Source: Octopus vulgaris
Taxonomy: Eukaryota
Length of the DNA: 64,000 nucleotides
Direction of reading: 5' to 3'
NCBI GenBank assembly: GCA_951406725.2
Contig: OX597833.1
Span: 61,070,001-61,134,000 of the forward strand
This document shows positions 3,452 through 10,700 of this stretch, piece after piece. The translations under genes and the position numbers were made by a program. Below the pieces are notes generated by a model that did not search any database, was not told where the DNA came from, and was given only the letters and a program-made list of their open reading frames with translations. Numbering within the stretch: the stretch's first letter is position 1; each line of letters starts with the position of its first letter.

Positions 3452-5986
3452 GTAACAAACATATTCTATGTGTGGCAGCAATACGTAACACATGATTGTA
3501 TAACGGTGGCTTACTGTATTGGGTTATGACCCTTTATGGTTTGGGTTCTCACCCTGCTGGAATTGAGTTTGCCCATTACTCTTTGTGGGACTGGGTCCCA
3601 AGAAGAATAAGATAATACCAGGGAAGTAATGGAACTCATTTCATGAATTGCCCCTTCTGTCACTCCCTCTTCTCCTTCCCATAAATCTATGCTTTGTACC
3701 TGTAAGAAAACCTTATGGGGGATAGTGGTGGTGGTGGTGGTAGTAGTGGTGTTGGTTGTTGTAGTAAATCTATTGATTCTACAAAGGTTTATAAAACTAA
3801 CGAGGAAGCTTCTGTTATGTCCACCTGCTAGAAATAGCAAGTAAATTCTTTCAAATATATCCAACTGTTTTGGGGCTTTAAAAAAAAAAAAAGCAAAGGA
3901 ACATTAGACAGTGTTGTCCAAATACAGAAGAGGTGGAAGTGGTCATAGTTGGAATGGCTTTGAGCCAAGGTGTACCCAATTTGGACGGACCTGGAGCATC
4001 TTATTTGTTCAGTCGTTGGACTGCAGCCCTGCTGGGCACCTCTTTGAAAAGGTTTAGTCAAACAGATCACCCTTGGTACTTTCCTTTCTTTTTAAGTCTC
4101 TTACTTACTCTATTGGTGTCTTTTGCTGAACAATAAGTTATGAGGATATAAACAAACCATCACCAGTGGTCGAGTGAGGCAGGGGTGGGGAGGCAAGCAG
4201 ACACACACACACACACACACACATTGATATGATGGGCTTCTTACAGTTTCTATCTACCAAATTCAGTCACAAGGCTTTGGCCATCCTGAGGTTATTATAG
4301 AAGACACTTGCCCAAGGTGCCACACAGTAGGATTGAACCCAAAACCATGTGGTTTCGTGGTTCTATTGAACAAACGCTTTATTTTCTCTACTGTGATGGT
4401 GCTCATGTTCCAGTCCCTATTTTTAACATGCACCGATTTATTTTCAAAATTGAAAGATTCACTGCTTTCAGAATTAGCACATTGGACAGGTGTCTTCTTT
4501 CATAGCCTTGGGTCAACTCTTATGTTGAGACTGCCACCTATCATAGTCTCAGATTGACCTGTATGTTGGGTGTAAAATTGGATTGATGAAAACTGTATGG
4601 AAAACCTTTGGATAATCTTTAAATGTTCCCAAGTAGTGGACTTAATCCTTTACTTTGTTCCTTGTCACCACCTTGTCCCTGGATGCCTTTAGTAGAGTCT
4701 ACTAGAGTGGTGACCCCCTTGAGAACTTTTAGTTCACTTTGTTGCAAATATTCAGAGAGCAAGTCTTCTGTCTAAGAATATCTTCATAGTTTGGTGTCCT
4801 GCTGTTGTAGCAGGAACTCTTGAATTGTGTCCTCCTCACTTTCTCTGCTCACTGGCCTCAAAGATTCAGTAAAGGTCATCTGATGCTACCCCACCTTTTT
4901 TTTTCTCCCAGCAAAAGCAGATGTATGCACAAGCACACACATATGCGAAGGTGCATAGTTTTGTGGTTTGGGTGTTATACTCATGGCTGCATGATTGTCT
5001 TGCTTCTCGATCGAGGCAGTGCATTCAGCAAAACACTCCATTCCACATTGCTCTGTGATTACATCAACGTCTGACGTGCAACACAAACATCTGATCACTA
5101 TAAACAAATCATCTCTGCAGGTTATTCAGCAAGAATTTGAAGAACCCTCAAATTACATCAGGAGAGACCCACCCCTATATAATGTAGCTTCAGCCAATAA
5201 CTTGCATAAGTGGAGGCTTTACTGAGTTATTGTTATGCAGGTGTATTACGAAGATGATGAAGGATAGAGACTGAGTGGAGTGACATATACAACCACCCTC
5301 TACTCTCAGATTTGTCCTGTAATTAGCAATTTCACTTTCATTGTTTCTGAAAGATCTTAATTATTTATATAAATATTAGAAATGCTATGCCTCTGACTCC
5401 ATTGCCATTATTACAACTACTACCACCACCAACACCACTACTACAATTTGTATTGATTAAAATTCTTCTCATATTGTATGAAATAAAAAGTTAAAGGACA
5501 GTATGGGTGTGGCTGTGGTTAAACTCACTTTGTTACTACTTAATTTGGGGGTCAATCACATATAGCAATACCTCAAGCATCTTCTCTACTTTCACAGAAA
5601 TGTGAGAGAATTTAGCAGACAGAAACTGTAGAGAAGCTTGTGTGTGTATACACACATACTTATATATACTGCATATATACGCATCTGAGTGAGAAGGTCA
5701 TGGTTTTTATACTTTCTGGTCACTCTGCACTTCTGAAGATCTGTGGAGTAATAAAAAAAAAAGCCTTTACTTGATAAACAGAACAGCTGGTTATAGGAAA
5801 GGCATTTGGTTGAGAAATCCGCCCCCTCTTAGAAAATTCCTGTTCATCCTGTATTAGCATAGGGAAACAGATGTTTAACAAATAAGCGAATGAATATATA
5901 AATGTGTGTGTGTAATAATGATGAAATGCGTTTCATATTGTAAAGGCAAATTGAATTTTGAATATTTTTCTTTGTTCCTCTTGTAG

Positions 5987-6180
5987 ATGATGGTCCTAGT
6001 GTGAAAGCTGTTCCAACAACAAGTGTGAGTCCCCGATCGTCAACACCGAAACGTGGTCCTCCTCCATTGGTTTATTCAAGCCAGTCATCATCATCATCAT
6101 ATCTGACCCCACCCCCTGTAGTGACAATCGCTCCAACTCAAGCTCACCCAACACACCTCCACTCAGAAGCTCATTCTCAG
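5987..6180 (+). CDS. GSE1: GSE1-like exon (DGPSVKAVP...EAHSQ)
   Basis: ttgtag| ... CAG|gtaatg; open, S/P-rich. Confidence 0.8.
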
Positions 6181-7705
6181 GTAATGTCACACTCAACACG
6201 TTCCTGTTTGTCTTTGGCACAACTTCCTACCATACCACATTCTTCTTTATATCTTCCACTTTAGCCTATTTTTCTATGGATTTTTTTCTTTCTTGTTTTA
6301 TTCTAGAATTTGGAACGTACTCACTCCGTACAAAGCTCATCTTCATCGCTCTATGACCCCCTTACTATAAAACAGGAAAGAGACCACCGACCCTTGTCAT
6401 CACAATCTCGAGATGGTGACACAGCAAAAGAATGCATTATCCAGCCATCCCACAGGTTGGTTAAAAAGTTAGGATTGCTTTTTGTCATTTCTCTGGAATT
6501 TAATTTTTTTTCCCTCTTTTACTACTTAATTTGCCCTCAGTTTCCTCATTATTTCACTCGTAATCGAGCGGTTACTGTTTATATCTCGTTCAGAGATTTA
6601 TTATTGTTTTCAGACAGTTTTTCTACATCAGTGACAGTGGTTACTGTGAAAAACATTACATATTGTTTGTAAGGGGACTCCTTCATCGAAGACCGGTGCT
6701 TACCATGCGTTGACAAGAGGCAATTACCTCGAAACTATAGTCCGTATGTAGTACTCGGGTCTTCGATGGAGGATGACCTCCCTTTGCAAACAACACAAGG
6801 ACACTGAGATAGTGTCTAAAGTCCTTCTGGTGACGTTGATCGCCTGGGGCTAAAAGCATCAGTAACCCCCCAACCCCCAACCAGTGGCTAGCCACATTTA
6901 GATGGCTGATACCCCTTACGTTGTCGAGCGGTTACTGTTTATATCTCGTTCAGAGATTTATTATTGTCTTTCATTAAAATAATAACAAAAAAAAAACAAA
7001 AAAAATCCCCCAAATCGACTCAAAATTCCCACTTTTCATCACAAACTGTAATTTTTCCTTTCTATCTTTCAGGACTACATCATCAGCTTTATCATCATCA
7101 TCATCTACACACGGCAGAGATGACCTTCCTCCCAGAGGTTTCCAACCATATAGACCAGAGGAAGAGATTCGGCCTATGTTAACATCCCCTTTTGGTTTGG
7201 ATGCCGCTTACCCATATCACCCAGCACTATTTGCACACCAACCCTACCCTCATCCTGCATTTAGGTATTGCTATATAGTTTCTTTAATAATTTTATATAC
7301 ATCATCATACTATTATATAGCCTCTTCAGTAATTCTACATACATCAAGGCACTGTTATATAGTTTCTTCCGTTTAGAAATTCTACATACATTTGAGGTAC
7401 TGCTATATAACTTCAATAATTATACATACATCAGAGTGTTGCTTTATAGCTTCTGTAGTTCAGTAATTCTACATATATCCTGGTATTGCTATATAATATT
7501 GCTATGACTCATTTACTCTTTACCTTATTTCAGTCATTTGACTGCGGCCATGCTGGAGCACCGCCTTTAGTCGAGCAAATCGACCCTGGGACTTATTCTT
7601 TGTAAGCCCAGTACTTATTCTATCAGTCTCTTTTGCCGAACTGCTAGGTGACGGGGATGTAAACACACCCACATCGGTTGTCAAGCAATGCTAGGGGGAC
7701 AAACA

Positions 7706-7744
<39 letters not shown>

Positions 7745-10700
7745 GACAGGCTTTATTTAGTTAAATAAATTGCTTTACTTACAATTTAACCAGAGATGTC
7801 TCTCTGAAAATTCACCCAATTTCCCTCTTGATACAGTGACCACCCCCCAGCATTGGTTTTCTCCAGTTCAAGAATAATTTTGCAGTTTTAATAGTAAACT
7901 TCGGTGTATTCTCTTGTCTGAAATGACCAGCTTTTTAGTGGATATTTCAATTTAGAGAACAAAGAAAAGTCTGTGGAGACTCGGTCCGCAGAGTCTGGCA
8001 GCTGGGAACATGATTCATCCCCTTTGGAAAAGTCTTAGAGAAGAGAGGACATATCAATGAGTTATTGGTTGTGGTGCATCATTTAACTTTTCTTTACCCA
8101 TACCTTAGGTCTCTTCCTTTGCACTGCCTCTCTCAAATGTGTCAGGACGTCCAAGTAAATCTCTTTCTAGATTGTCTGACCCTGTGGAACAAACTCCTGA
8201 CAAACAACACCCGTCTATATCACTTTCATATTGGAATAACGTTGTGGATTTTTGGTTGCAATGCTACTGTTCCAACTCTCGGAAATGACTGCCTTTTTAT
8301 TTCAATATCATAGTTGTACATCCACATAAAGTCACTACATTTGATACTTATATAATGAAACAGCTCCTGACTGGTTCAGCTCTCTTTTACGTTCACAGAT
8401 TTTGTGATAACATGCTGCATCTTCAGTTACCCTCTTAAAATCTTGTGGTACACACTTTTTTCAGATGCCTGCTCTTTCCTTTTAAACTTCACAGACAGTC
8501 AGGCAACAATTTCCATAGATCAACACCCAATTTAGCAATCCTTTGATGTGGATATCCTTCCCCATACTAAAAACCGGTACAGCTCAAACAATCCACCCTG
8601 TTGGTCTATTGTAACATTAGAAAAATCTCCATATTTGAAACAGAACTTCACACAAATATGTTGTTCTGCCAAATCCTTCTCTGTTTAACAAATCCCCAAA
8701 TTTAAACAAATGGCTCATGCTGGCACATGCAGACAGATGACAAAAATTGTTGTGGTTTGATGTGGCTTTGTATGGCTGAAGATCAAACACTCTTACACCA
8801 TACTGCAGTCAGTTGCACACTGCACCAGCATCTTGGTTGTAGTTATTTACTTGTTAAAAATATTTTCATTGTTTATTGAAACTTCCATTAAAGCAGGAAT
8901 TCTTTCCCCCCTCAGCCCCCCTGATATTTCATAATTAATCTTTTAGAGTAGGAAAATGAGAAAATGTAACTTCTGTTGATTCTATGGAAATAGCTAAGAA
9001 CTGAACTCAAAACCCATTGGGTTACAGATGTATATGTATGTAGTTGCCTGGTCCTGTGTTTAGATACATGATCTGTGTCATACATGAAATGCTTTACTAT
9101 TTATTTCAACCTAAATGCTGCTGCTATTACTGTTTCCTTCTAGAACCATTTTATTTTTTTTTCCTTTTTTCGTTTTCTTTTTTTTTTTTGACCCCTTATA
9201 TTGGCTAAATCTCTCTAAGGCTTTTGTTTCTCTTCCAGTCGTATTGATGATCCTTTAGTTTTAGAAAGATGCCGATTGATGCACCCGCACTTCATGACAT
9301 TTCCACCTCCAGGTATCATTCCACCTCCGGGAGTACATCCTTTTTTATCATCTAGTCGTTATCCTACAGATCTTCTCCATCAACAGTACCCACAGTACCT
9401 GCCAAACAGTTCTCGTCTGGCTGGATATCGGTCACCTGGACCAAATGACAGGTCGGTACATTTATGATTTTATTCTCTTTTGTCTAGTTATGGTCATAAT
9501 TTTTTAGGAGAGTGGAGTGTATTTAATATAGCAAATTGTGATTTATTAAACCTTCCCCAGCTGTGAAAGTATCAGAGTTGATCCTCTTTGAGTTTGAACT
9601 CAGAACTATGGGACATTGTAAAGTGTTTAAGATTCTCACATGACACTATGATCTCCTATGTCACACTGAACAGCTACAATTTAAACAAACAAACATATAT
9701 ATAGACATAGCTGTGGGGTTAAGAAGCTTGCTTCCCGACCTTGTGTTTTGGGGTTCAGTTCCATTGTGCTGCTCCTTGGACAAGTGTCTTCTACAGCAGG
9801 TAGGTGGAAACTAAAAGAAGCCAATCGCACATGTGTGGACCCTTTCCTGACATCATGTGAGGGTTGCAGATGGGCATAGGAAATATTACATGGCTGCTTT
9901 GAAACAGGTGAAGGTTGGCGGCAGGAAGGGCATCCAGCTGTAGATAAGCTGCCTCAACAAATCTGTCTTTGCCATGCAAGCATGGGAAAGTAGACATTAG
10001 CTGAAGGTGGTGAGCTGGCAAAAATGTTAGCACGCCGGGCGAAATGCCTGGTGGTATTTCATCTGCTGCTACGTTCTGAGTTCAAATTCTGCCGAGGTCG
10101 ACTTTGCCTTTCATCCTTTCAAGGCCGATTAAATAAGTACCAGTTAGGCATTGGGGTCAATATAATCGACTTAATCCGTTTGTCTGTCCCCTCTGTGTTT
10201 AGCCCCTTGTGGGTAGAGAAGAAATAGGTAGACATTAGCTGGAGGTGATGATGACAATAATTCAAACAATTTTTTTTATAATTCTTATCTCCTTGCATTC
10301 AATTTTCCGTGCTAACTTTTATGGGTTCGACAGATTTCTTAAACCCAACTTTTGCATGGTAGTAGGAGTGCACTTGTGCACCATTCCACAATTTGATGAC
10401 AGTACATTTTTACTTGTATCAAACTGTGGAATCTACAGCTGTGACAATTCACAGTTCTATGTTGCCAGGTTAGCTGTGGGGGCATGCATTGGTGCAGCAT
10501 ATAGCTACATTCACCATTAGTCAGTATATTCCTGGGTCCTCCCAGATGACCCTTAGATCAGCGTCCCAGTCAGTCCCCATCTCTGCAAGATACCCCTCAT
10601 CTGCCATGATCATGTGGTATGTGATCAACCAACATAAACCGTTTATATGTTGTGGAGATAGAAAAGTAGACAAGCGGGTTGGCAGAAAGCAAAACAGGGA

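Follow-up and report, generated by a model that had tools for sequence, protein, structure and literature searches.

A dispersed hammerhead retrozyme family of Octopus vulgaris with Penelope-type insertion structure, and hybrids joined at predicted ribozyme cut bases

A 360-nt non-coding unit bearing a hammerhead ribozyme, located in an intron within a 64,000-nt stretch of the Octopus vulgaris genome (assembly GCA_951406725.2, contig OX597833.1, forward-strand positions 61,070,001 to 61,134,000; hereafter the window), belongs to a dispersed family, here termed family A, which is best read as behaving like a non-LTR retrozyme that spreads as a non-autonomous Penelope-like element, and not as a viroid. 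The window copy is probably a 5'-truncated member of this Penelope-structured family, whose RNA would be cut at C17 of the hammerhead, religated by RtcB and copied into AT-rich DNA by a Penelope-like enzyme. Hybrid insertions elsewhere in the genome, in which other RNAs meet a Penelope-like element at its predicted cut base, likely record ribozyme cutting and rejoining of the ends in living cells.

The host intron of 617 nt inferred in the first-pass annotation is upheld by its GT..AG ends and by in-frame read-through of the flanking exons, and the gene product contains a DUF3736/PF12540 domain, which we take to identify the gene as GSE1 (GSE1-like). The 44-nt direct repeat enclosing the unit (Table 1) is indeed exact, with a period of 360 and differing flanking bases, and the match continues to position 6973 with one inserted base. 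The unit also retains CpG as had been noted (observed/expected 0.71, versus 0.42 for the window) and has a GC content of 45%. The window copy consists of one unit plus a tail, is 5'-truncated with a single hammerhead, and lies in AT-rich, non-microsatellite DNA with no clear target-site duplication. The insertion with its 5' flank was present in contigs of two DNA-like runs (organisms A and D) among the four sequencing runs whose contigs were examined, and an empty site was seen in none of the four. A run presumed to be RNA includes intron sequence and was left out of account. An origin of the 44-mer by host duplication was ruled out, as the 44-mer belongs to the unit genome-wide. With its single hammerhead, the window copy probably could not release a circle by itself and would be a dead end, cut at most in trans. 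The next intron contains a degenerate tandem repeat of ~42-47 nt (window 7260-7525) with an inverted match at 5553-5576.

Table 1. Features of the family-A copy and its host intron, in window positions
Feature	Position	Strand	Basis or remark
Host intron, 617 nt	6456..7072	+	GT..AG; DUF3736 gene; unit sense to gene
Retrozyme unit, family A, 360 nt	6564..6923	+	Repeat period and genome-wide copies
44-mer, copy 1	6564..6607	+	Marks 5'-truncation point of window copy
44-mer, copy 2 (Penelope-type tail)	6924..6967	+	Span separating the two fixed 3' ends
Long hairpin with ribozyme	6663..6793	+	MFE fold and covarying pairs
Type I hammerhead	6695..6755	+	Stems, core and GAAA as below
Stem I	6695-6700/6750-55 and 6704-09/6743-48	+	Hammerhead motif
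Core	6710-16	+	U3, A8
Stem II	6717-20/6727-30	+	Hammerhead motif
GAAA	6731-34	+	Hammerhead motif
Palindromic stem III	6734-41	+	2 bp within 8-nt palindrome
C17, predicted cleavage base	6742	+	Three chimeric insertions elsewhere end family A exactly here

The long hairpin proposed earlier is recovered in the minimum free energy fold (-138.4 kcal/mol, z -6.2, none of 100 shuffles as low), the three small hairpins listed beside it also exist, and circular folding, which had been suggested as a check, gave -121.5 (z -6.3, none of 60 shuffles as low). The description of the unit as rod-like is accurate for 6663-6793; the circle as a whole is branched, with 65% of its bases paired. Likewise, the type I hammerhead with a predicted cut after C6742 stands, but its core is non-canonical (U3, A8) and its stem III has just 2 bp. 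Relative to the minimum free energy fold of 6690-6762, the active hammerhead fold is less stable by 3.6 kcal/mol, and an Rfam search of 5500-8000 yielded no hammerhead and two spurious matches. Both sides of the hairpin pairs 6665/6791, 6666/6790 and 6691/6761 change among copies, with 42 cells of both-side changes for these three pairs versus 0-6 for slid partners, the cells counting copies and not events. Of 104 distinct family-A monomers, selected with a pattern that constrained other core bases but neither position 3 nor position 8, 103 have U at position 3 and 103 retain C17, and position 8 is occupied by G in 100 monomers and by A in the remaining 4. The family core is hence U3·G8, and the window copy, with U3-A8, falls into a cluster containing two further A8 copies (support 96/85). 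A U3-A8 hammerhead core is known and active according to PMC3088659 and PMC4209133; literature searches found no paper describing a natural U3·G8 hammerhead.

The additional genomic copies anticipated by the first-pass annotation exist in the hundreds, dispersed and in some cases in tandem: at least 227 exact genome matches to a 27-nt ribozyme-core pattern were recovered (control, 0), and a search of the octopus genome with the unit gave at least 119 matches when the best 40 out of 2,949 loose candidates were scored, the top ones being 92-96% identical. From 110 fetched loci, of which 30 were chosen for matching along their full length (a criterion biased towards tailed ends) and the others by the core pattern, removal of 19 overlapping or duplicate loci and 2 chimeras left 89 loci with 150 arms. 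The 3' ends of these arms fall at unit 355-2 (71 arms) or 40-50 (57 arms), with 22 elsewhere; two fixed termini account for 128 of the 150, contrary to the expectation of different permutation points. The 5' ends are scattered, without enrichment at the cut site (2 of 150 within 4 nt, unit 176-184). An (AT)3+ stretch adjoins 79 of the 128 arms having fixed 3' ends, and the 47 inverted pairs combine one short with one tailed arm in 31 cases, two tails in 2, two short arms in 1 and another end in 13. Two or more cores ~360 nt apart, a feature that the window copy lacks, occur at 13 of the 89 loci, and such tandem source arrays reach ~3.4 units, closing on themselves at 360 nt. No ORF is tied to the unit across the family-A loci.

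Divergence averages 2.05% between tandem monomers (40 pairs), 2.08% between inverted arms (39) and 5.9% between different loci, and the low tandem and inverted values are as would be expected from repeated copying of one template. The copies as a whole form a low-divergence, transposon-like tree. Two mosaic arrays (L067 and L045), with switch points away from the cut site, are impossible from one 360-nt circle, and multimeric templates must therefore also occur. Apparent hammerhead spacings of 3.6 kb and 1.4 kb were considered as full elements and rejected as local host duplications. At L064:7100-8900 both array arms end at unit 138 and enter the same LINE-like 5' region, inside a large inverted duplication.

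Partial tandems, an inverted 5' arm, a tail at one end and microsatellite targets constitute the insertion signature of Penelope elements as described in PMC8557442, and family A exhibits partial tandems, variable 5' truncation, an inverted 5' arm, a one-arm tail and AT-rich targets. In window coordinates, the first fixed 3' end (unit 359) corresponds to 6922 and the second (unit 40-50 of the next repeat) to about 6967. In Penelope elements the tail extends from one RT start to the other (PMC11167929); with the two fixed 3' ends taken as RT start sites, the second 44-mer is such a tail.

Three Penelope-like families of this genome, termed B, C and L062, were examined alongside family A. Family B is autonomous, with a 4,471-nt period in L338, where the full-length element (L338:2075-6700; G000:C8:86303300-86311300) contains two overlapping ORFs, the first of ~430 aa and unknown, the second combining RT and GIY-YIG domains. 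Penelope elements usually have a single ORF; the two-ORF layout is the same in L337 and L339. Both terminal repeats of B contain a hammerhead-like motif with U3-A8 and a palindromic stem III, GCAA instead of GAAA in nearly all copies, and a stem I that pairs poorly in the register used. A GT..AG stretch of ~50 nt spans its predicted cut site. In copies of the B-like family C (L299 and others) a sequence resembling an intron acceptor terminates at the 5' strand of stem I, and a comparable intron-acceptor position is reported for Drosophila Penelope in PMC4209133. The third family is represented by a 5'-truncated element in (AT)n (L062:5980-8330, minus strand); its 3' region is repetitive, a minimal U3-A8 hammerhead is located close to the 3' end, and its ORF lies near a family-A copy as a separate insertion. 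U3 cores are common to all three Penelope families.

The case for cleavage is an indirect one and comes from the hybrids. At L031 (with a local duplicate), L099 and L114 family A ends at C17 and continues as B, the first base of B being the one that follows its predicted H17; nothing is added at the joins, and one L099 arm lacks one A. The three chimeras carry different B variants, which makes separate events likely, though all start at family-A positions 122-132. A survey of all 100 genome matches in which the downstream piece of B is not preceded by its native base found 73 slightly altered native arms, 14 fold-backs, 3 A halves, 3 U6 arms at two loci (L211 and L230), 1 U6atac arm (L231), 2 with an uncharacterized insert and 4 others. 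Arms with an A, U6 or U6atac partner are rare, amounting to 7 of the 100 non-native arms beside 1,768 native ones. The U6 and U6atac pieces join B at the same base as A does, and all four U6-B arms within a 31-base window fall at the cut base. Rfam calls U6atac with 80.6 bits and U6 with 52.5 bits, each ending at the 3' end of the model; the short U6 piece at L211 received no Rfam call and rests on its identity to other U6 copies. Rfam applied to L211, L203, L208, L162, L062 and L156 returned chance matches of the hairpin type only. At L239, one of the 4 others, both arms join a whole tRNA-like SINE at the predicted cut base of B. Pyrimidine-rich inserts of ~50 nt were also observed, exactly between the predicted 5' and 3' cleavage products of B at L208 and directly before the predicted 3' product at L203.

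Most of the U6 loci (29 viewed of 48 listed) join SINE-like sequence or host flank, indicating that joining of U6 is common in this genome; the retrocopies L252-L283, many of them fused to SINE-like sequences, suggest frequent ligation of U6. One U6 locus joins family C; a hammerhead cut at that point was predicted from the join beforehand, and native C copies do display one there (U3-A8, GAAA, same stem III), recognizable in most of 19 matches, with several decayed or truncated. The presence of the C hammerhead at the U6 join fixes the register of the site in B. On the family-A side, the 11 copies in which C17 is followed by a base other than C comprise 5 point variants, 5 A-B chimera arms and 1 join of A to internal A, and no reciprocal join of B or U6 to A occurred among 4 matches. 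At L148 (equivalent to the L016 region) C17 of family A is joined to about unit position 281 of family A. Since reverse transcription of the A-B chimeras starts on the tail of B, these do not demonstrate that B mobilizes A. Cut-site chimeras of Penelope elements are not described in the literature that we searched, which mostly excluded subscription journals.

The chief competitor of ligation, which we regard as possible but unlikely, retains the ribozyme cuts and has the Penelope RT jump from a cut 5' end to the 3' end of another RNA, generating both tandems and chimeras. Jumping would accommodate the SINE RNA joined at the cut base of B, the 14 fold-back arms near this site and the mosaic arrays, and no circle has been observed. 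However, the partner has a cyclic-phosphate end (5' half of A, U6 or U6atac) at 6 of the 7 B loci with an identifiable partner and at the one C locus, the joins lack added bases, and no end of an mRNA, a tRNA or U1-U5 was recognized in the 100 arms, as judged by eye and motif only. For B alone, an intron 5' splice site may account for the joins, a GT being located 3 nt upstream; yet the joins retain the four A's and lack GTA, which fits the ribozyme cut.

Two further readings concern the nature of family A. Were it the terminal repeat of an unsampled autonomous Penelope-like element, the ribozyme would be irrelevant and the tandems would be read-through of tandem DNA. In this direction point the match of Xenopus retrozymes to Penelope terminal repeats (bioRxiv 10.64898/2026.07.22.740005), the finding that hammerhead cleavage is dispensable in vitro (PMC11167929) and the fact that the genome search scores best candidates only. 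Against these, the unit is collinear with a Penelope ORF at none of the 89 loci, and the ORF at L062 belongs to a separate insertion; arrays of up to ~3.4 units close at 360 nt, and joins at C17 exist, all of which renders a terminal-repeat origin improbable. Least credible of all, at a very low probability, is a viroid-like circular RNA with RNA-to-RNA replication and capture as DNA at random permutation points, as the first-pass annotation had envisaged in part: the strong fold and covarying pairs would suit it, but the two fixed 3' ends, the branched fold, the transposon-like tree and a motif scan that found no minus-strand hammerhead in the window do not. Of the earlier interpretation, the assignment to the non-LTR retrozymes is retained, family A being a multi-copy, tandem, hammerhead-bearing non-coding retroelement with an element-borne 44-mer; the different permutation points and the viroid-like character are not supported, and the earlier reading had overlooked the Penelope signature, the cut-site chimeras and the U3 core.

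Under the favoured reading, that of a retrozyme moved as a Penelope-like element, multimeric family-A transcripts would cut themselves, the palindromic stem III probably allowing them to do so as dimers. Hammerhead cleavage products have cyclic-phosphate and 5'-OH ends. To judge from the chimeras, such ends would be ligated in cis, giving circles of 360 nt or multimers, and on rare occasions in trans with other cut RNAs. The cyclic phosphate at the end of U6 and U6atac lets RtcB join them to 5'-OH RNA (PMC6789731), and RtcB circularizes retrozyme monomers in vitro (PMC7229834). The pattern in the DNA suggests that target-primed reverse transcription would start at two fixed sites ~45 nt apart, cross the ligated cut site and stop at no fixed point, in many cases adding a second, inverted arm. 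A circular template for family A is plausible. More broadly, and with a confidence only somewhat better than even, we interpret the hybrids as a germline fossil record in which non-canonical hammerheads of Penelope and retrozyme RNAs (U3·G8, U3-A8, GCAA) cut in vivo, their ends act as RtcB ports that swap partners in trans, and Penelope elements and retrozymes move via ligated (circular) RNA and can capture any cyclic-phosphate RNA at a fixed site. Weighing against the favoured reading are the in vitro behaviour of the PAc Penelope RT, which did not depend on ribozyme cleavage and gave no reads terminating at the site (PMC11167929), the Xenopus retrozyme dimers, 8 of 9 of which did not cleave (bioRxiv 10.64898/2026.07.22.740005), and the non-canonical cores themselves, namely U3·G8 (100 of 104) and the GCAA of B.

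Comparison with known systems places family A near the metazoan non-LTR retrozymes (PMC7229834), such as the ~350-nt mussel family, with which it shares a non-coding tandem unit of 150-450 nt, a type I hammerhead, a short palindromic stem III, a GC content of about 45% and the co-occurrence of Penelope-like elements. Each unit of family A has a type I hammerhead (U3 variant) and no coding capacity, and its tandem arrays, with a unit inside the 150-450 bp range, contain at least two hammerheads at 13 of the 89 loci. It differs from the retrozymes of PMC7229834 in its U3·G8 or U3-A8 core and its mostly dispersed insertions of 1-3.4 units with inversions and a tail, and is known here from DNA alone; the accessible text of that source names no cephalopod family. 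With the non-autonomous Penelope-like elements (bioRxiv 10.64898/2026.07.22.740005; PMC8557442) it shares partial tandems, an inverted 5' arm, a one-arm tail and microsatellite targets, whereas its tail measures 44-45 nt against their 30-40. Comparison with B, C and L062 yielded no autonomous homologue and no terminal repeat matching A, so that the link lies in insertion structure and the A-B chimeras and not in homology.

The hybrids resemble the RtcB-dependent U6/LINE-1 chimeras (PMC6789731), in which the 3' ends of U6 or U6atac are joined to retroelement RNA and then retrotransposed. In those the L1 junction has no specific site, whereas the octopus hybrids involving B and C meet at the predicted cut base and the 5' product of another ribozyme also serves as donor. 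Family A shares with Poseidon PAc (PMC11167929) AT-rich targets and two RT starts downstream of the hammerhead that define the tail; that study, as far as its consulted text extends, had no in vivo sign of cleavage, of which the present chimeras are such a sign. A recent repeat annotation of octopus (PMC13282606) names Penelope-like families, its main text mentioning neither ribozymes nor retrozymes in the portions consulted, and its library may hold family A.

Cleavage by Penelope hammerheads in vivo was without evidence according to the available text of a 2014 paper (PMC4209133), and a 2026 preprint describes, in its accessible part, little evidence on the life cycle (bioRxiv 10.64898/2026.07.22.740005). 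The position of the joins suggests activity in cores that standard searches overlook (U3·G8, GCAA). Family A itself belongs among the known retrozymes; what is new here is the cut-site chimeras, of which the A-B forms establish a physical link between a retrozyme RNA and a Penelope RNA. Chimeras that meet at predicted cut bases provide a readout of cleavage and joining from DNA only, usable on any genome.
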